In this document: in pieces, positions 5,008 through 58,640 of the stretch
Numbering within the stretch: the stretch's first letter is position 1
Layout of the letters: each line of letters starts with the position of its first letter
Assembly (NCBI GenBank): GCA_017454915.1
Contig: JAFTCC010000064.1
Coordinates: forward strand, 91,322 to 155,321
Direction of reading: 5' to 3'
Origin: Paludibacteraceae bacterium
GTDB lineage: Bacteria > Bacteroidota > Bacteroidia > Bacteroidales > Paludibacteraceae
DNA: 64,000 nucleotides
Position numbers and translations under genes: made by a program
The notes under the pieces: generated by a model
What the model saw: only the letters and a program-made list of their open reading frames with translations
Databases searched by the model: none
Told to the model about the DNA's origin: nothing

Positions 5008-5895
5008 TCAAGTCTTACATAATTTACATTTAACCAAAACAATATAGAAAAACAGCAAGGAGAACGATATTAAATAATACATAGCAGTGTTGTGAACAAA
5101 GTCTTTTAACACAACGATAGGCACCATGTGCCATAAATATACATTTAAGCTATGTCTGCCTATGTAACATAGAACATTATTGTGGGGCAATAAATCTCTC
5201 TTAATAGAGGGATATAGAAAAAAAACAATTATTGATAATAACAATAAAAAAGAAATCAGTTCGCTACGAAAAAAAGAATATTTTTTAACTAACAACAACA
5301 CTGGGAAATATAATAATAACACCAGTCTATATGCATGTTTTAATAATCGATCTATATCTAAATGATTTTTTAAATATAATCCCAAAGCGAAATACGGCAG
5401 TTGTTTACAATCGCACCATCTCGGCAATGAGTTTGGCGGGCAAACTTTTAACAAAACTATCCACAATAATGATAAAAACACCAAAATCAAGTATGGCTGT
5501 TTTTTTGTCCTAAAAAAAACATATACTGTTAAAACATACGAAAACAATGTCGGGACATACCACAAATGATACCATGGATAATATAACACTTCAAATGCCT
5601 TACTCCATGTAGGATCAAACATAATAAGATACATGAAAAATACTACAAAAGCTATCAACCACATTTTTATCATTCTATTCCAATACTTAAAAAACAGGTC
5701 ACGCATAGTCATATGTGACAATTTTTCTACATCAATCAAGTAGCCACTCACAAACATAAAGAGAGGCATGTGAAATGAATAGATGACATAGCGAAAAACA
5801 TTTTGCTCTAGTGAGCCTAAAAGTACATGTCCAATTATTACACATAGTATAAGAAAACCCTTCACAGTATCAATTGAATAATTCCTACAACTCAT
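5008..5895 (-). CDS. membrane O-acyltransferase (acyltransferase family 3)
   Basis: 295 aa and polytopic. N-terminal VKGFLILCVIIGHV motif. Strongly AT-rich. Confidence 0.7.
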   Translation of the reverse strand: MSCRNYSIDTVKGFLILCVIIGHVLLGSLEQNVFRYVIYSFHMPLFMFVSGYLIDVEKLSHMTMRDLFFKYWNRMIKMWLIAFVVFFMYLIMFDPTWSKAFEVLYYPWYHLWYVPTLFSYVLTVYVFFRTKKQPYLILVFLSLLWIVLLKVCPPNSLPRWCDCKQLPYFALGLYLKNHLDIDRLLKHAYRLVLLLYFPVLLLVKKYSFFRSELISFLLLLSIIVFFLYPSIKRDLLPHNNVLCYIGRHSLNVYLWHMVPIVVLKDFVHNTAMYYLISFSLLFFYIVLVKCKLCKT

Positions 5896-5943
5896 AACAG
5901 ATTAAATAAATTTTTGTTCGCTTGGAGAAAAAAAGTCACACTA

Positions 5944-7467
<1,524 letters not shown>

Positions 7468-7471
<4 letters not shown>

Positions 7472-8232
7472 TTTTTGTTTTTTTTAATTTGTTCTTTCAT
7501 CGCTTTGTAGTAATTAGTATGACATTCCAAGTAAGCCACAACATCATTAATTTCTGAAGGATCGCGCCCCAAATCAATAATGCCAGCATATATTTCTCTT
7601 AGCATATTAAAATCATCAATCGTATCGAGAGTCATCCTAATATTCTGTTTATTCTCTATTTCACATGGGATTTTCAATAATTTGCAATCAAAAATATCTC
7701 TGTGAGAATAAATGAAATTAGTAACATGCTCGTGATAAATAGCTTCTGTGGTCATTATATTGATTTTTTTCAACGCTTCTACTTTCACCGCTTCACACCA
7801 AAAACCATAATGAGTCTTAATAGTTGGGATTCCACTACTTGTCGCATAGCAAATGTAATCCGCAACAGAGCTATCAAACTCGTTGCACAATTGAGCCACA
7901 GACGATATACTTAAAAAAGGGTTGTCTGCACATATTCTGATTATTTTATTATAGCCATAAAAATCTGAAGCGTCTATAAAACGCTTCAAAACATCAGTTT
8001 CATCACCTCTAAAAACCATGCAGCCATGCCGCAAAGTTATTCCTTCCACAAGATCATCACTTTGATTGGTCGTCGTTGCTACAACAATTTTATTGGAATT
8101 AAAAACAGACGACAACTTAAGCAATAATATATCAAGCACACAATTGTCTTGATAAAACGGTAAAACTATTTTTTTAGGCAATCGTGAAGAACCTGTTCGT
8201 GCTTGAATAATTATACCTGTTTTTTCATGCAT
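7468..8232 (-). CDS. cytidylyltransferase-family protein (CMP-nonulosonate synthetase / SpsF-like)
   Basis: IIQARTGSSRLPKKI is the N-terminal motif of the acylneuraminate cytidylyltransferase/SpsF family. 254 aa. Confidence 0.7.
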
Positions 8233-8239
8233 AGTAAGC

Positions 8240-9331
8240 TTATGATTGATTTAGTAAGTTTATGATTGATTTACCATTATTAAATTTTGCCATATCAACT
8301 CGTTTCCCACTCGTTACTTCATCCCATTCTGACAGTTCTTTGTAACCTAACACATTACAAAAGTCAACTATGTTACTCTTAATAAAGTTCAATTCATTAA
8401 ACAAAGAAAACAAAAAAAGTGGCACGACACCCTTATATGCCAATTTAATTAAAGTCGATGAATACAACGCAGCTGCGCAACCCACATCATACTTGTCAAT
8501 AATCTCTTCTACTATTTCTTTCGTTGAGATAAATTGCACGTTATTATAATGAGAGCAGTATTCTTTTAGCTGCGCACTCGTTTCGGTATCTTCCTCACGA
8601 GGATGACATTTAACATATAGTAACTTGAACTTTTCTGCCAAATTACTAATACATTGCACGTCTATTTCAAAACTATTTGGCCCGACTGGTTGAGTTAAAA
8701 AAATACAACATTCCATATCTCTGCCACTCATTTTTATTTCCCTCTTCCTTAAATATTCTACCTTTATATTACGAATTATAGAAATGGACGTAAAAAAACA
8801 TGATCCAGTATAATACTTATCAGACAACATGGCATACATTTCATTCCCTGCGAAATAAGGATTAAAACCTCGTAAGCCATAAAGAGCCATATAAAGGTAC
8901 TTTAGAACATACCAGCGTTTAGGAATTGACGTAGATGGTGAGTTGTAGTAGATGTACGAAGCTATACCGTCCTCAATCAGATAGACGCGACATCCTCTGC
9001 TATAAAACATATCTATGCAGAACATGTTCATCAGCTCGCACTCGGTAAAAACGAACAAGGTGTCGTTTCTGGTCGGACGGAGCGCATCCAACTGCCTCCG
9101 TTTGCGTAAATTGTCGCGGTGAATATCAATCAGTTTGCTTAATCTTGACGGTGCCTGCCTCTCAAGAACCTGGCACCGTTCAAAAGTGTATTGCATAGCA
9201 AATGGCAAATCGTGCGGCACTTCCATACGGTACGGGACACTGATTAGCGCACATTTGTCATAACCAATTTCGGATGCCAACAATTTGACATCATATAAAT
9301 GAAAATCATTATTTACAAGAAAATATATCAC
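8240..9331 (-). CDS. sialyltransferase-like glycosyltransferase, paralog A
   Basis: 363 aa with a GTG start. Ordered motifs are LIEDG (D/E-D/E-G), CHP (HP) and YSST (S-S/T), as in bacterial GT-B sialyltransferases. It is a paralog of 12105-13190. Confidence 0.5.
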   Translation of the reverse strand: MIYFLVNNDFHLYDVKLLASEIGYDKCALISVPYRMEVPHDLPFAMQYTFERCQVLERQAPSRLSKLIDIHRDNLRKRRQLDALRPTRNDTLFVFTECELMNMFCIDMFYSRGCRVYLIEDGIASYIYYNSPSTSIPKRWYVLKYLYMALYGLRGFNPYFAGNEMYAMLSDKYYTGSCFFTSISIIRNIKVEYLRKREIKMSGRDMECCIFLTQPVGPNSFEIDVQCISNLAEKFKLLYVKCHPREEDTETSAQLKEYCSHYNNVQFISTKEIVEEIIDKYDVGCAAALYSSTLIKLAYKGVVPLFLFSLFNELNFIKSNIVDFCNVLGYKELSEWDEVTSGKRVDMAKFNNGKSIINLLNQS

Positions 9332-9363
9332 TTGATTAACACAATTTTTACTTCACCTATAAC

Positions 9364-9389
9364 AAACGACCCTTTTTCGCAGGTCAATG
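9364..9389. repeat. inverted repeat, left copy (candidate recombination site)
   Basis: AAACGACCCTTTTTCGCAGGTCAATG. It has an internal dyad GACC-N10-GGTC centred on TT at positions 13/14. Confidence 0.9.
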
Positions 9390-9555
9390 ATGCTATATTT
9401 ATTACCATATAACAAACTTTTAACTATTATGACTTCATTTCATTGTGCGGAATTTTGGGCGTTTTCATTGGCTAAGACATAACATATATAAACGCCAAAA
9501 TATTTCCACCCTATTATCGCTTACTTTCATATCAACAATAAACTTAAATGAAATT

Positions 9556-10161
9556 ATGTTTTACGGATACATTCGAGTATCTACTGACTCACAAACAGTA
9601 GAAAACCAAAGATTTGAAATCATGCATTTTTGCGCAGCACACAACATTATAATAAACGGCTGGATAGAAGAAACAGCCAGTGGCGTAATGAGTTACAATA
9701 AACGACAACTTGGTTCTCTATTGCAAAAAATTCAAAAAGAAGACACTATAATTTGTTCAGAATTGTCTCGGCTCGGGCGCAATCTTTTTATGATTATGGA
9801 AATTCTGAACATCTGCATGACCAAAGAGTGCCGTGTGTGGACAATCAAGGACAACTACAGGCTTGGAGATGACATACAGAGTAAGGTGCTGGCCTTCGCT
9901 TTTGGTTTGTCAGCCGAGATAGAAAGAAATTTAATTAGCCAGCGCACTAAAGAAGCGTTAGCAAGAAAGCGCGCTGAAGGTGTACAACTTGGAAGGCCGA
10001 AAGATAGAAAAACATCTCAAAGCGCACATAAACTCTATCCTCAAGAGGGCTTAATAAAACGTTTGAGGGCAGAAGGTGTATCATTTGCGCAGATAGGCAG
10101 GTTTCTGAAAGTAAACAAAGAAACCGTCAGAAAATACTATCACAGCTTTATTGAAACTTAA
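9556..10161 (+). CDS. serine recombinase, resolvase/invertase type (Hin/Gin/Mpi-like)
   Basis: 201 aa. YIRVSTDSQ (catalytic Ser), SRLGR, AEIERNLISQRTKEAL, and a C-terminal HTH (VSFAQIGRFLKVNKETVRKY). The ATG at 9556 is preferred over the upstream alternative start at 9445. Confidence 0.85.
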   Translation: MFYGYIRVSTDSQTVENQRFEIMHFCAAHNIIINGWIEETASGVMSYNKRQLGSLLQKIQKEDTIICSELSRLGRNLFMIMEILNICMTKECRVWTIKDNYRLGDDIQSKVLAFAFGLSAEIERNLISQRTKEALARKRAEGVQLGRPKDRKTSQSAHKLYPQEGLIKRLRAEGVSFAQIGRFLKVNKETVRKYYHSFIET

Positions 10162-10262
10162 TAGTGGACTGCTACATACGGCTTTTATTCATTTTTACTC
10201 AATTTGAGGCATCTAAATAATTGTTTTTCCTTTCTAAAATTGCAGGTTTAACAAATTATTCA

Positions 10263-10270
10263 TAACTTTG
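10263..10270 (+). promoter_or_regulatory. Bacteroidetes -7 promoter box (TAACTTTG) at inner edge of right repeat
   Basis: TAACTTTG immediately abuts IR-R (10271). It reads outward across the repeat into neuA (ATG 10329). Confidence 0.55.
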
Positions 10271-10296
10271 CATTGACCTGCGAAAAAGGGTCGTTT
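10271..10296. repeat. inverted repeat, right copy (candidate recombination site)
   Basis: CATTGACCTGCGAAAAAGGGTCGTTT is the exact reverse complement of 9364-9389. Confidence 0.9.
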
Positions 10297-10328
10297 TTTT
10301 TATACTGCTCGTAATAACTTCTAATATA

Positions 10329-11015
10329 ATGGGTAAAACACTGATAGTCATACCCGCCCGTGGAGGCAGCAAGGGCATTCCGCACAAAAACCGACGGTCT
10401 CTTGCCGGGCGTCCGCTGATTGCGTATTCCATTCAAACCGCATTAGACATCGCAACCCCGGACGACATCTGCATATCAACCGACGACCCGGAAATCGCAC
10501 AAATTGCCGAGGACATGGGCGTCAAAGTGCCTTTTCTGCGTCCTGCTGAACTGGCAAGCGACACGGCAGGTTCTTACGAAGTGCTACTCCATGCCGTCAA
10601 CTTTTACGAGCAAATGGGACGGCACTATGACACGCTGTTGCTGCTTCAGCCCACATCACCCTTGCGGACCACGCAACACGTGCGCGAAGCTATTGAACTA
10701 TATAAACAAGGAATTGACATGGTGGTCAGCGTGCAGCCTGCAAAAACCAATCCTTTCTACAACTGCTTCAAGGAAAATGCCGAAGGATACATTGAGCCGC
10801 TGCTCGCCAACAATTTGACACGCCGGCAAGATGCGCCAACAGTGTACGAATATAACGGGGCTATCTATTTCATCAACATTGAAAGCCTGAAAAAAATGCC
10901 GCTCGGGAAAATGAAACATATCGTAAAATATGTAATGGATGACATCTCATCCGTTGACCTTGACACCCAGCTCGACTGGCAAATAGCCGAATTCTTGCTC
11001 AAAAATAACCAATAA
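10329..11015 (+). CDS. neuA: CMP-N-acylneuraminate (nonulosonate) cytidylyltransferase
   Basis: IPARGGSKGIPHKN, LLLQPTSPLR and YEYNGAIY are classic NeuA/LegF motifs. Confidence 0.85.
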   Translation: MGKTLIVIPARGGSKGIPHKNRRSLAGRPLIAYSIQTALDIATPDDICISTDDPEIAQIAEDMGVKVPFLRPAELASDTAGSYEVLLHAVNFYEQMGRHYDTLLLLQPTSPLRTTQHVREAIELYKQGIDMVVSVQPAKTNPFYNCFKENAEGYIEPLLANNLTRRQDAPTVYEYNGAIYFINIESLKKMPLGKMKHIVKYVMDDISSVDLDTQLDWQIAEFLLKNNQ

Positions 11016-11025
11016 ATAACACACT

Positions 11026-12075
11026 ATGTTTTTCGCATACGAAAACCATACTATAAATTTTGACGCCACCATCCACAATGCCCTGAACGTTCTCAACAAA
11101 TTGTGCGACAGGAAGATGCTGCTCTTTGTGCTTGACAACGAACAGAGGTTATGGGGAACGTTGACTGACGGCGACATACGCAGGGCATTTCTTAAAGGTT
11201 TTGTCCTGTCTGACACTGTGAAGGACATCGCTTTCCGTGAGTTCAAATTTTTGAGCAAAAACGGCACTCACGTTCAGGCAATTTCCGCATTCCGCAAAAT
11301 GGGACTCTCGCTGTTGCCCGTGTTAGACGATGACGGACGTATCGTGGCGGTGCACGACATTTCAGACGGCAAATCCATACTGCCCCTTGATGCCGTCATC
11401 ATGGCCGGGGGCAAAGGAGAGCGCCTGAGACCACTAACAAACAACACGCCAAAACCACTGCTGCCGATAGCAGGGAAACCTATCATCGACTATAATATTG
11501 AAGCGCTGATGCGAAACGGCATCACTAACATCAATGTTACTGTCAACTACCTCAAGGAACAACTTGCCGAGCATTTTTCCAGGCCATTCAACGGCATCCA
11601 AGTTAAGTGTGTCGAAGAACCAAGATTTCTGGGCACCGCAGGGGCGATGCGCTTTGTCAAGGACTTTGAGAACGACGTCATACTGCTGATGAACTCTGAC
11701 ATTTTCACTAACATCTGCTACGAGGATTTTTACCTATACTTTGCGGAAACGCAAGCTGACATGGCTGTCGCCACACTGCCCTACTCTATCTCCGTGCCAT
11801 ACGGCATTGTGGATTTGGATGGCGAAAAAGTACAGGGATTGAGCGAAAAACCGACGTTCACCTACTATGCCAACGCCGGCATTTACCTGCTCAAGCGGCA
11901 AATGGTGGACCTGATACCAACCAACGAGGTTTTCAACGCCACTGACCTGATGAACAGTATAATAGACAAAGGTCTCAAAGTTGTGCACTATCCCATAGGC
12001 GGCTATTGGATTGACATCGGCAACAAGGACGAATATAAAAAGGCGCAAGAGATGGCAAAATTCATCGCACAATAG
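11026..12075 (+). CDS. CBS-domain sugar-phosphate nucleotidyltransferase (PtmE-like)
   Basis: An N-terminal CBS pair, then AVIMAGGKGERLRPLTNNTPKPLLPI (NTP-transferase G-rich loop). Confidence 0.75.
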   Translation: MFFAYENHTINFDATIHNALNVLNKLCDRKMLLFVLDNEQRLWGTLTDGDIRRAFLKGFVLSDTVKDIAFREFKFLSKNGTHVQAISAFRKMGLSLLPVLDDDGRIVAVHDISDGKSILPLDAVIMAGGKGERLRPLTNNTPKPLLPIAGKPIIDYNIEALMRNGITNINVTVNYLKEQLAEHFSRPFNGIQVKCVEEPRFLGTAGAMRFVKDFENDVILLMNSDIFTNICYEDFYLYFAETQADMAVATLPYSISVPYGIVDLDGEKVQGLSEKPTFTYYANAGIYLLKRQMVDLIPTNEVFNATDLMNSIIDKGLKVVHYPIGGYWIDIGNKDEYKKAQEMAKFIAQ

Positions 12076-12104
12076 CACATAAGCTTCGGCTCAAATACAG
12101 CATA

Positions 12105-13190
12105 ATGGTTTATTTTCTTGTCAACAACGACTTTCATGTTCACGATGTCAAAAATTTGGCAGCGCAACTGGGATATGGCAATTGCTCGCTGATAAGCGTA
12201 CCCTACCGCATGGATGTACCCCGTGAACTGCCATTTGCTCACCAATATGTTTTTGAGCGCTGCGAATTCCTGCTCAAACAAGTGCCTTCTAACCTGCGCA
12301 AACTATTAAGCATTCACAGGGATAATTTCCGCAAAAGGAAGCAGTTGGATGCACTCCGCCCGACCAGAAACGACACCTTGTTCGTTTTTACCGAATGTGA
12401 GTTGATGAACATGTTCTGCATCAGGAAGTTTCACAAGGTAGGTGCCAAGATATTCCTCGTCGAAGACGGCATGGCATCGTACATATATTTTAACCGAGAC
12501 TCTGACCGCATTCCATTAAGGTGGAAACTCGTTACACCCGTTTACAAACTCCTTTACGGCCTCAAGGGTTTTTATCCTTACTACGCCAGCTCTATGCCCT
12601 ACCACATGCTTTCAGAAAAGTACTACAGGGGAGCATGTTTCTTCACACCCATCAGCATCAGGCGCAAACTGCCTGTTATTTGGCTTGACAATGGCGAGAA
12701 GCCTCTCCGTGGACTTGACCAGGAAAACGCTATGGTGCTGACACAGCCGCTCGGGACAGAGTCGCTCAAAATAGACAAAACCATACTCGATAACGTCCAC
12801 GCCAACTTCAAGCGCATTTACCTGAAGTGCCACCCGGATGAATTTCGCGACCAGAAAACCTACAATGCGCTCAAGCAGCTATGCGCACAGTACGACAACG
12901 TCGAGTTTGTGGAAAGCGGTGCTATCATGGAAGACCTGATAGAGCTATACCGCGTAGGATATGCAATTTCGCCATTCTCTTCCACACTGCCGCGATTGCA
13001 GAGCAGAGGCGTAATTCCTGTTTATGTCTATCACCTGCTCAACGACATTAAAGCCGTGAGCATAGATAACTACTTGAAACTAATAAACTATAATTTCGCC
13101 ACTAAGTGGGAGGACATCAAACCCGGGTACAGCAGCTTTGCCAATAAGGTTGATGGCCTCAAAACCTCAATAAAAGATTTAATCAGTTGA
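12105..13190 (+). CDS. sialyltransferase-like glycosyltransferase, paralog B
   Basis: 361 aa. Motifs LVEDG, CHP and FSST in the same order as paralog A. The stretch QLDALRPTRNDTLFVFTECELMNMFCI is identical to A. Confidence 0.5.
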   Translation: MVYFLVNNDFHVHDVKNLAAQLGYGNCSLISVPYRMDVPRELPFAHQYVFERCEFLLKQVPSNLRKLLSIHRDNFRKRKQLDALRPTRNDTLFVFTECELMNMFCIRKFHKVGAKIFLVEDGMASYIYFNRDSDRIPLRWKLVTPVYKLLYGLKGFYPYYASSMPYHMLSEKYYRGACFFTPISIRRKLPVIWLDNGEKPLRGLDQENAMVLTQPLGTESLKIDKTILDNVHANFKRIYLKCHPDEFRDQKTYNALKQLCAQYDNVEFVESGAIMEDLIELYRVGYAISPFSSTLPRLQSRGVIPVYVYHLLNDIKAVSIDNYLKLINYNFATKWEDIKPGYSSFANKVDGLKTSIKDLIS

Positions 13191-27763: not shown

Positions 27764-28239
27764 TTATTTTATTTTTCCCAGATTGATATGCCAACTTATA
27801 TTTTTGTCGCAATCTTTTACCGAGCCAAAAAATGGAGCCAATAATGCATTAATGCCTCCTTTGGAAGGATCAAAGTCGTAAACATCTTCTGCAATTGTAT
27901 CTCCATTGCTGTCTTCTTTGAAATTATAGATTGTAATATCTGTGCCCTTAAACCCAAATCGGTCATTAGACCGACAAGTTTGGGTCAGTGCTTACAAAAA
28001 GTAGTCTATTATTGTCTTTTTTGTTTCTTTTTGGCTTATTTTTGCTTTTTGCTCGGTCATTATGCCCGCATAACTCCCTCGTTCAAAGACAAAAATCCGC
28101 TCAAAAATAATTCAAAAAATCCTAATAATTCTAATGACCGATTTGGGTTAAACTTAGAGCTGTCATTGGGGGCATTATATCTGTCCAATTTACATGATTT
28201 ATTAGCGTGGAGCGGACACGACACGACGGACGGGCACAA
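27764..28239 (-). pseudogene. small ORF split by a MITE-like insertion
   Basis: The minus-strand frame ...CKLDRYNAPNDSSKF (right of the element) joins in frame to KGTDITIYNFKEDSNGDTIAEDVYDFDPSKGGINALLAPFFGSVKDCDKNISWHINLGKIK* (left) once the element and one TTAAA copy are removed. Confidence 0.35.
27953..28147. mobile_element. MITE-like non-autonomous element (195 bp)
   Basis: 17-bp perfect terminal inverted repeats CCCAAATCGGTCATTAG (27953-27969) and CTAATGACCGATTTGGG (28131-28147). They are flanked by a direct TTAAA repeat (27948-27952 and 28148-28152). No coding capacity. Confidence 0.6.
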
Positions 28240-46463: not shown

Positions 46464-46797
46464 ACATGTGTTGCCTCTGGGGCTGGAATTGATTTGATGT
46501 TTGCGCTGAAAACCGCGGTAGCGGTGAAACAATGTTAGCCGTGGGTGAGTGAGCGGCAGCATCAAAAACCGCGGTAGCGGTGAAACAATGTTAGCCGTGG
46601 GTGAGTGAGCGGCAGCGAACGTAACCCACGGTACGCATTGCACACCCTATTCAAGTCGCGTAAGCGGCGGCACACTATTCCGGTTTTTTGTGCCGCCCCT
46701 ATGGGGCTAAATGAATTGACGATTATTCCGTTGTCCGTGGGTTTCGCTTCGCTCCACCCACGGCTAATTTTGTGCCGCCCTTACGGGGCTGTTCGCC
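46464..46797. repeat. composite REP-like element (module Y with internal 56-bp tandem duplication, then module X)
   Basis: Homologous to 54700-54970 with the modules in the opposite order. Tandem copies lie at 46509-46560 and 46565-46616. The hairpin-forming CCGTGGGT...ACCCACGG and the motif TTTTGTGCCGCCCCTAYGGGGCT are present. Confidence 0.85.
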
Positions 46798-54699: not shown

Positions 54700-54970
54700 G
54701 AAAATGGATTGGCCTTGTTCCGTGGATTCCACCCACGGCTATTTCTGTGCCGCCCCTACGGGGCTGTTTACTGCTGCACCATGTGTCGCGGGGCTGAAAT
54801 TGATTTGATGTTTCCGCCGAAAACCGCGTTAGCGGTGAAACAACATTAGCCGTGGGTAAGTGAGCGACAGCGAACGATAACCCACGGTACAAAGCGCACA
54901 ACATTTTCAAGCCGCGTTAGCGGCGTCACAACATTTTGGCCGTTTTTTTGTGCCCCCCCTACGAGGCTAA
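54700..54970. repeat. composite REP-like element (module X then module Y)
   Basis: 54715-54775 matches 46733-46797, and 54779-54970 matches 46464-46712. Confidence 0.85.
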
Positions 54971-57529: not shown

Positions 57530-58640
57530 TCTTTTAACGAACACGAATTGAACGAATTGTTACCTCTACGGAGTAATGGAGTTTAGGAGGTTTTCGGTAC
57601 GAATTACACGAATAACACGAATTATTTTCATGAACGGCGAAGAGATAAATTCGTTAAATTTGTGTAATTTGTGAACATGAAAAAATCCACGAACACGGAT
57701 AAACGCGGATTTGTTTCGGTACGAATAACACGAATTTCACGAACACGGATAAACACGGGTTACCGCATAGCGGTTTTCGGATGATAGACCGTGAAACGGT
57801 CATCTCTATGGTAACCGCATGTCGCGCCAGCGACTTGCGGTGGTTCACGCCATGACGATGCACGCTGACGGCGTGCCCTTATCCGCGCGTTTTGTCGCGT
57901 GGTGATTGCGATTTGACGGGTGTGGCAATATGGCACGCTTCCAGCGTGCTGTCACATATTCCGCCCAAACCGCAGGTGGCTCCGCTACCTGCGGTTACTC
58001 TATATGTGACCGCGCTGCGGTCTGAAGCGTCAGGCATTTTTTCGAAAATTCCTAACGGAATAATAATTGAATCCTCTATATTTCTATCATTCGGAATGCC
58101 ATACGGGCAATGTCGGCAACATTTTGCGTCACCGCTGACGCGGTTTTTTGTGGGTTGGCGTTGTCCGTGGGCGGCGCAAGCTTGCCCACGGCTATTTTGT
58201 GCCGCCACTCCGTGGCTGTCATTACCGCGTAGCGATTTCCGAATGATAGCAAATCGTTTCCAAAAAATCATTTACCCTATCGGGGTTTCCGAATGATAGC
58301 TTTACGCCACCCCTTAATCATTTACCCCATCGGGGTTTTCGAAAATTCCCGCTCGGCTGCGAAGCAGACGCTTTTAAGCGAAGCGAAAAAGAACGGAATA
58401 ATATATATTATCCGCTTCATTGCTATCATTCGAAATGCCATACGGGCAAGGCCCACGGCTATTTTGTACCGCCCCTACGGGGCTGTCCGACTTTGTCCTG
58501 CTTTGTCCTGCTTTGTCCGATTTTGTCCTGCTTGTTGCTCCACTGATGTACAACAGATGCTCCACAAATGTGCAACTATAAAACAAGCGTCAGCATTGTT
58601 TGGCAAAAAAAATCAAAAAATCCACAATAAATGACTATAA
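57530..58640. repeat. repeat-dense non-coding spacer
   Basis: Multiple short duplicated blocks occur here: GGTACGAATWACACGAAT, CACGAACACGGATAAAC, TTCCGAATGATAGC, AATCATTTACCCYATCGGGGTTT, TCATTCGRAATGCCATACGGGCAA, and two module-X copies. Confidence 0.8.
58491..58530. repeat. 10-bp tandem repeat (4 units)
   Basis: Units: CTTTGTCCTG CTTTGTCCTG CTTTGTCCGA TTTTGTCCTG. Confidence 0.9.

Follow-up and report, generated by a model that had tools for sequence, protein, structure and literature searches.

The locus and its inverted repeat

Here we examine two sialyltransferase-like genes, and a near-identical inverted repeat that they share, in a 64,000-nucleotide (nt) stretch of contig JAFTCC010000064.1 (GenBank assembly GCA_017454915.1, positions 91,322 to 155,321 of the forward strand). 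This whole stretch is referred to below as the window. The contig belongs to a metagenome-assembled genome (MAG) of an uncultured Paludibacteraceae bacterium, and its sample codes suggest an origin in the ruminant gut. The two genes, paralogs A and B, are divergently oriented and encode proteins with 51% amino-acid identity. Between them lies the gene for an Mpi-family serine DNA invertase (Table 1). An earlier reading made from the letters of the window alone (the sequence-only reading) had pointed out the repeat and proposed that it is a site of recombination between the paralogs.

Paralogs A and B are predicted, by sequence and fold, to be bacterial GT-B sialyltransferase/polysialyltransferase-like enzymes. 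Both proteins score above the PF07388 cutoff of 23.3 bits. An AlphaFold2 (AF2) model of A, with a predicted local distance difference test (pLDDT) score of 81, has as its best fold match in the PDB the bacterial polysialyltransferase 5wcn_A (E 3.8e-10; template-modelling (TM) score 0.59). A comparison of the family profile with the PDB by sequence returned no matches. The family is very small: at 90% identity it comprises five clusters among 5.8 billion, namely those of A, B, P0002, P0004, and P0005.

Each paralog belongs to a set of genes for nonulosonic-acid sugars. Paralog A is the first gene of an AT-rich left cassette that also encodes a cytidylyltransferase, NeuB, a HAD phosphatase, and an acyltransferase. 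Paralog B is the third gene of a right-hand operon, following a neuA-like gene and a gene for a CBS-domain nucleotidyltransferase. A legionaminic/pseudaminic-type set, encoding a 4,6-dehydratase, an acetyltransferase, NeuB, and NeuC, follows on the right of B.

The 81-bp inverted repeat is real and non-random. The reverse complement of 9015-9095, within A, matches 12341-12421, within B, at 76 of 81 positions, and the mismatches fall at gene nt 249, 255, 291, 294, and 298. The sequence-only reading had the same count of matches, with the A arm set one base too high; the reverse complement of 9016-9096, taken literally, matches 12341-12421 at only 19 of 81 positions. Its 35-bp perfect core is also present, with the A arm at 9042-9076 (-) rather than at 9043-9077 and the B arm at 12360-12394 (+). 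This core occurs twice in the whole window, and none of 100 shuffles gave a match. The repeat was found in four independent assemblies produced by different assemblers, and is therefore not an assembly artefact.

The repeat tract covers 27 codons (80-106, QLDALRPTRNDTLFVFTECELMNMFCI) that specify the same residues in both paralogs. Every difference between A and B in the tract is therefore synonymous, and the earlier statement to this effect holds for 27 of 27 codons. Nucleotide identity between the paralogs is 93% in the tract, 67.5% on its 5' side, and 48% on its 3' side, which bears out the description of the flanks as more diverged. We also find an excess of shared codons. Where the two proteins have the same degenerate residue, the same codon is used at 19 of 25 positions in the tract, compared with 24 of 51 on the 5' side (Fisher p = 0.026) and 31 of 98 on the 3' side (p = 8e-5). 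The synonymous sites of the tract are thus better conserved than those around it.

A patch of discordant ancestry

The closest relative of paralog A is not paralog B. It is the gene for P0002, which is encoded on a contig (L007) from another Paludibacteraceae species, beside a recombinase copy with 83% identity to the one in the window. Compared codon by codon, A and the P0002 gene share 80-87% nucleotide identity over codons 1-79 and 75-82% over codons ~97-140. Between these two regions, across codons ~80-96, the identity of A to the P0002 gene drops to 55-62%, while its identity to B climbs to 87-92%. The proteins follow the same pattern. Within the tract, A is 100% identical to B, whereas outside it the identity of A is higher to the L007 protein (82% and 70%) than to B (65% and 50%).

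Informative sites in the three-way comparison delimit this change of affinity. From gene nt 1 to 236, A agrees with P0002 against B at 50 sites and with B against P0002 at 10. From nt 237 to 290, the counts are 0 and 25, and from nt 291 to 450 they return to 43 and 11. Sites that unite A with B therefore stand to sites that unite A with P0002 as 25:0 within the patch and as 21:93 in its flanks (Fisher p = 2.8e-15). The ancestry of the patch conflicts with that of both flanks, with A being L007-like on either side. This discordance strongly supports gene conversion at the tract, one of the two processes that the sequence-only reading had put forward. The exchange was also non-reciprocal, as the patch is alike in A and B, the flanks keep their linkage, and hybrid genes were not found.

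The patch is shorter than the repeat. It measures 46-54 bp, depending on whether its minimum or maximum limits are taken, and A and B are identical at 52 of the 54 positions (the exceptions being nt 249 and 255). In the N-terminal Rossmann domain of the protein it covers a helix end, a loop, and a beta-strand (codons ~80-96).

The remaining 27 nt of the repeat lie outside the patch and encode the motif TECELMNMFCI. At nt 291, 294, and 298, A has the L007 state and differs from B, so the three right-hand differences between the paralogs are ancestral. In the family alignment the motif varies little or not at all, and it is among the most conserved in the family. Over its length, the A and L007 genes are identical at 32 of 33 nt despite coming from different species. 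Its codons have low degeneracy, and the DNA of this block is therefore similar in all relatives. From these alignments, protein constraint alone appears to account for the similarity of the block. The 81-bp repeat thus appears to be a composite, in which a conversion patch of ~50 bp adjoins a block kept similar by protein constraint.

Table 1. Positions of the paralogs, the parts of their shared repeat, and the other features of the locus (window coordinates)
Feature	Position	Strand	Evidence or remark
Paralog A, polysialyltransferase-like GT-B glycosyltransferase, 363 amino acids, GTG start, MBQ9440645.1	8240-9331	(-)	PF07388, 37 bits
Paralog B, polysialyltransferase-like, 361 amino acids, MBQ9440649.1	12105-13190	(+)	PF07388, 38 bits
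Conversion patch in A, probable recipient	9042-9095 maximum (gene nt 237-290); 9047-9092 minimum (nt 240-285)	(-)	Informative sites
Matching patch in B, probable donor	12341-12394 maximum; 12344-12389 minimum	(+)	Holds the core 12360-12394
Conserved coding block in A, outside the patch, 27 nt (nt 291-317), TECELMNMFCI	9015-9041	(-)	
Conserved coding block in B, TECELMNMFCI	12395-12421	(+)	
Approximate mosaic junction in A (codons ~130-170)	8820-8911	(-)	Identity and GC change points
Mpi-family serine DNA invertase gene, 201 amino acids	9556-10161	(+)	NF009949, 308.6 bits; Pfam Resolvase, E 7e-32
Left arm of inverted repeat around invertase gene	9358-9389	.	26-bp perfect core 9364-9389
Right arm of inverted repeat around invertase gene	10271-10302	.	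Perfect core 10271-10296
Promoter-like block, -7 box TAACTTTG at 10263-10270	10240-10270	(+)	29/31 identical in L007
neuA/PseF-like cytidylyltransferase	10329-11015	(+)	Inside block proposed to flip
CBS-domain sugar-1-phosphate nucleotidyltransferase	11026-12075	(+)	Inside block proposed to flip

We conclude that the repeat is most probably the scar of one old, short, non-crossover, and non-reciprocal ectopic gene conversion beside a conserved motif. With less assurance, we favor a transfer from B to A. This direction is supported by parsimony and by the GC content at third codon positions (GC3), which is 0.74-0.78 in the patch and nearer to the composition of B than to that of A. Pairing would have been seeded in the conserved block, the longest identity that the two copies already shared, and the heteroduplex would then have extended ~50 bp towards the 5' end, presumably through the general recombination machinery. 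Resolution would have been without crossover, so that nothing was inverted. The two copies would have drifted independently from then on.

Variation among strains is informative about the age of the event. We compared the window with L006, L009, and L010, the four sequences being ~99% identical overall. The patch, together with the same two internal differences between A and B (nt 249 and 255), is common to all four strains, and the conversion therefore predates their split. Since then, the tract has acquired single-nucleotide polymorphisms (SNPs) that are private to one strain. In A these are at nt 248 and 252 (L009), nt 261 (L010), and nt 288 (L006), and in B at nt 258 (L009). None of these five private SNPs is mirrored in the other copy, whereas ongoing concerted evolution would be expected to spread them. 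The tract of A has four segregating sites in 81 nt, compared with 1.1% in the rest of the gene, and the perfect core has been worn down to 29-32 bp in three of the four strains. This pattern of substitutions indicates that the identity between the two tracts is decaying, upheld neither by conversion nor by selection. The tract is a relic rather than a switch.

Alternatives to a single conversion

Several points weigh against a single conversion from B to A. Its direction was assigned by parsimony with one close outgroup only (L007). A third donor elsewhere in the genome is possible, as the window covers 64 kb, in which the core is found twice. The survey of orientations described below comprises ~7-9 consensus assemblies, among which a minority inverted subpopulation would go undetected, and Logan unitigs (k = 31) are unable to resolve joints over 35 bp of identity. 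Furthermore, the patch holds a dyad of 6+6 bp, AAACGA-N8-TCGTTT, that loosely resembles the repeat flanking the invertase gene (15/17, with one gap).

Both A and B could instead have been converted by a third tract copy, located either elsewhere in the same genome or in that of a donor. Three observations are in keeping with such a donor. The ALRPTRNDT version is present in none of L007, L008, and P0005; the GC3 of the patch is above that of both genes; and B, too, is less similar to the L007 gene in the patch (52-57% identity) than in the flanks (60-73%). Nevertheless, we regard a third donor as improbable. No third copy was found within the window, and the tract core has no match in the JGI (Joint Genome Institute) metagenome contigs, a collection that does not include this organism (the pattern of the invertase-flanking repeat has none there either). 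The family consists of only five protein clusters, and a third donor takes two events where one suffices.

The sequence-only reading raised a further possibility, that the tract is a working crossover site. The Mpi-family invertase, or RecA acting on the 35-bp identity, would flip a 3.3-kb block, swapping the N-terminal ends of the two genes and placing the other cassette behind the neuA-like and CBS-transferase genes. The geometry of this proposal is sound. The copies are inverted, are in the same codon phase, and lie on either side of the invertase gene, and an in-silico inversion of 9077-12359 yields two intact hybrid open reading frames of 363 and 361 amino acids. Inversions of shufflon type within coding regions are also known in Bacteroidales (PMC4747536; PMC10028968).

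The products of such an inversion are absent from all the sequences surveyed. Parental joints were found in the window, in L001, L002, L006, L009, and L010, and in the contigs of cluster members P0006-P0014. All 11 members of the two 90%-identity clusters represented by A and B are parental, with no hybrids among them, and an exact look-up among ~15 billion proteins found neither of the predicted hybrid proteins (A5'-B3' and B5'-A3'). The sequences to either side of the tract in A have one L007-like ancestry, and in both of them the gene runs collinear with its L007 orthologue; a crossover at the tract has therefore never been fixed. The wearing down of the core in most strains also speaks against a site kept for recombination. 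A Logan contig (L003) that ends exactly in both cores was rejected as evidence of inversion, because any repeat of ≥31 bp has this effect at k = 31.

We also rejected the tract as a second site for the invertase. The string AAACGAC..CCTT.TTCG is common to the patch and the invertase-flanking repeat, and together with the dyad it speaks for such a role. In a local alignment over the whole window, however, the tract scores 22 against the 26-bp flanking repeat, within the range of chance matches to unrelated sites (24 and 21). The aligned segments, AAACGAC-CCTTTTTCG in the tract and AAACGACACCTTGTTCG in the flanking site, agree no better than those unrelated matches. The tract also lacks the TGACC...GGGTC part of the flanking site, and the dyad is missing from the homologues in L007 and L008. 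Thus, with parental joints in every assembly surveyed, no hybrids, and decaying identity, inversion between the two copies is slightly less probable again than a third donor. That it retains this small chance reflects the possibility that consensus assemblies miss a rare inverted subpopulation.

A two-layer switch would combine both kinds of inversion, with Mpi flipping its own ~945-bp cassette and rare crossovers at the tract flipping the 3.3-kb block, thereby re-pairing the halves of the transferases. If this were true, the first layer would direct a single promoter to one or the other of two nonulosonic-acid operons, and the conversion patch would have been retained as the homology needed for the second. 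We consider this arrangement more doubtful than inversion at the tract by itself.

Least likely of all is that the identity is kept by nucleotide-level selection, on a protein-binding site or RNA hairpin, or by coding constraint or codon bias alone: four of the five family clusters conserve LFVFTECELMNMF (LFVFTETELLNSI in P0005), a peptide with many two-fold or one-fold degenerate codons, A and the L007 gene are nearly identical over TECELMNMFCI, and the dyad lends itself to a small hairpin, but coding constraint accounts for the 3' 27 nt only, the L007 and L008 genes differ freely within the patch in both amino acids and nucleotides, and strain SNPs fall inside the core, in a tract more polymorphic than the rest of gene A. 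As an RNA element, the tract was rejected on its unremarkable folding z-scores (-0.6 to -1.2) and on finding no match in Rfam.

The wider locus and related systems

Paralog A is itself a mosaic, with a junction well away from the tract. The sequence-only reading had called A chimeric and had noted a shift in its base composition at the tract. The shift exists, as GC content falls from 0.43 to 0.33, with its change point ~100 nt 3' of the tract rather than at it. Likewise, the gene is mosaic, with its junction 100-200 nt 3' of the tract (nt ~421 by GC and nt ~513 by identity). For GC, the best change point is at window 8911 (gene nt 421), with the shift in GC3 at codon 131. Identity between A and the P0002 gene changes at nt ~513 (window ~8820), falling from 80% to 43% (log-likelihood ratio 74), and the blastn match of A to L007 stops at window 8820. 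Sequence 5' of the junction is therefore ~80% identical to the L007 gene with a GC content of 0.43, compared with 43% and 0.33 on the 3' side. In the AF2 model of A, the junction sits late in the N-terminal Rossmann domain.

The left cassette (5008-8232) has a GC content of 0.30-0.42, compared with ~0.48-0.52 in neighboring sequence. GT-B enzymes bind their nucleotide-sugar donor mainly through the C-terminal domain. The variable C-terminal half of the transferase plausibly tracks the cytidine monophosphate (CMP)-sugar specific to each cassette. This arrangement suggests that the conserved N-terminal half may serve as a recombination anchor for cassette exchange.

Other variation was observed in and around these genes. 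A 20-nt unit (TAGTAAGCTTATGATTGATT) is duplicated in tandem at 8232-8271, its two copies being 95% identical; the duplication overlaps gene A at its 3' end and reaches up to the start codon of the cytidylyltransferase gene that follows. The left cassette also shows a presence/absence polymorphism at its outer end, where the segment 3527-5915, with the acyltransferase gene (5008-5895) and an AAA_14/DUF4143 ATPase gene, is absent from L006 and present in L009 and L010. Gene B of L009 (L009 6160-7227) has an in-frame 18-nt deletion at codons ~26-31.

Between the two paralogs, the invertase gene forms a cassette of its own (9358-10302). The encoded protein exceeds the 272-bit equivalog cutoff of NCBIfam NF009949 (Mpi-family master DNA invertase). 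The 26-bp repeats that flank its gene are the likely candidate sites of the enzyme. The recombinase copy in L007 is surrounded by homologous repeats, with the same two substitutions in both arms. Among 81 relatives (80 genome loci and L007), inverted repeats flank the invertase gene only in L007 and L018. No homologue of A or B was found in the 80 genome loci encoding invertase relatives.

The cassette also carries a promoter-like block, which adjoins the right arm and in the window faces the neuA-like operon, with A behind it. Its box, TAACTTTG, fits the -7 consensus of Bacteroides, TAnnTTTG, as given in PMC4747536, and the occurrence at 10263-10270 is the only one between 8676 and 10999. In the blastn comparison of L007 with the window, the recombinase matches in forward orientation and the 5' half of the transferase in reverse. 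The orientation of the cassette relative to the A/P0002 orthologue is thus opposite in the two species. Within the species, all contigs have one orientation of the cassette, and L010 has unmatched SNPs in both arms. We rejected contig breaks at window 10304 and 10370 as signs of inversion, as they are not where flipping at the flanking repeats would place them.

If there is programmed inversion at this locus, the 26-bp repeats are more likely to be used than the tract. Active flipping of the cassette in this species is plausible. The cassette may act as a toggle between two divergent surface-sugar (nonulosonic-acid) operons.

Further observations concern the invertase gene and other repeats of the window. 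A T>C substitution at window 10159 removes the stop codon, giving a Mpi protein of 202 amino acids in L006, L009, and L010, compared with 201 in the window. Contigs carrying the Mpi-family gene in many Bacteroidales MAGs end 25-160 nt past its stop codon (loci L016, L022, L027, L042, L056, L057, L059, L061, L063, L083, and others), so that assemblies evidently break just downstream of mpi. Elsewhere, in a gene-poor stretch, a 23-nt inverted repeat (27948-27970 and 28130-28152, 96% complementary) surrounds 159 nt with two TAnnTTTG boxes, at 28037-28044 (+) and 28102-28109 (-). In both size and shape it is consistent with a small Bacteroidales invertible promoter and, by eye, its arms and the repeats flanking mpi both have TGACC..GGGT. 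Short dispersed inverted repeats with CACCCACGGCTAA.../...TTAGCCGTGGGTG lie at 46508-46794, 54731-54857, and 58081-58444, with a second family near 58.1-58.4 kb; these may be intergenic repeat elements.

The tract is one more short ectopic gene conversion, of a known kind, in a very rare transferase family. The tufA and tufB genes of Salmonella are an example of ectopic gene conversion between inverted bacterial paralogs. As in that pair, the paralogs here are inverted and share a short, non-reciprocal, near-identical patch amid diverged sequence, and the same pairing could in principle give an inversion if it were resolved by crossover. Unlike tufA/tufB, the present case involves a single old event between proteins that are only ~50% identical, with no continuing concerted evolution and no inversion product seen.

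The layout of the repeat also resembles that of known invertase switches. In-frame inverted repeats in two genes beside an invertase gene are found in the Gin/Cin/Min tail-fibre switches and the R64 shufflon. The same in-frame layout is seen in the SusC/SusD shufflons of B. fragilis (Tsr0667; PMC4747536) and in intragenic or "partial intergenic" invertons (PMC10028968). In contrast to all these systems, the paralogs studied here have been seen in one orientation, the resemblance of their repeats to the core of the candidate invertase site is at chance level, and their identity is decaying. This calls for caution, since a near-perfect in-frame inverted repeat around an invertase gene mimics a shufflon, and it took one orthologue comparison to expose it as a conversion scar.

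The context of the tract is of more interest than the tract itself: an Mpi cassette between divergent nonulosonic-acid operons, and a transferase whose conserved N-terminal anchor is joined to different C-terminal halves and cassettes. The B. fragilis mpi is described to act on distant promoters rather than to ride inside an inverton (PMC4747536); here, unlike in B. fragilis, the recombinase gene lies within its own inverted repeats. The cassette is like the Bacteroides Mpi invertible promoters in having an Mpi-family recombinase and in lying between surface-glycan operons. It is also like the Hin H-segment of Salmonella, in that an invertase gene and an outward promoter are contained in ~945 bp between 26-bp inverted repeats.

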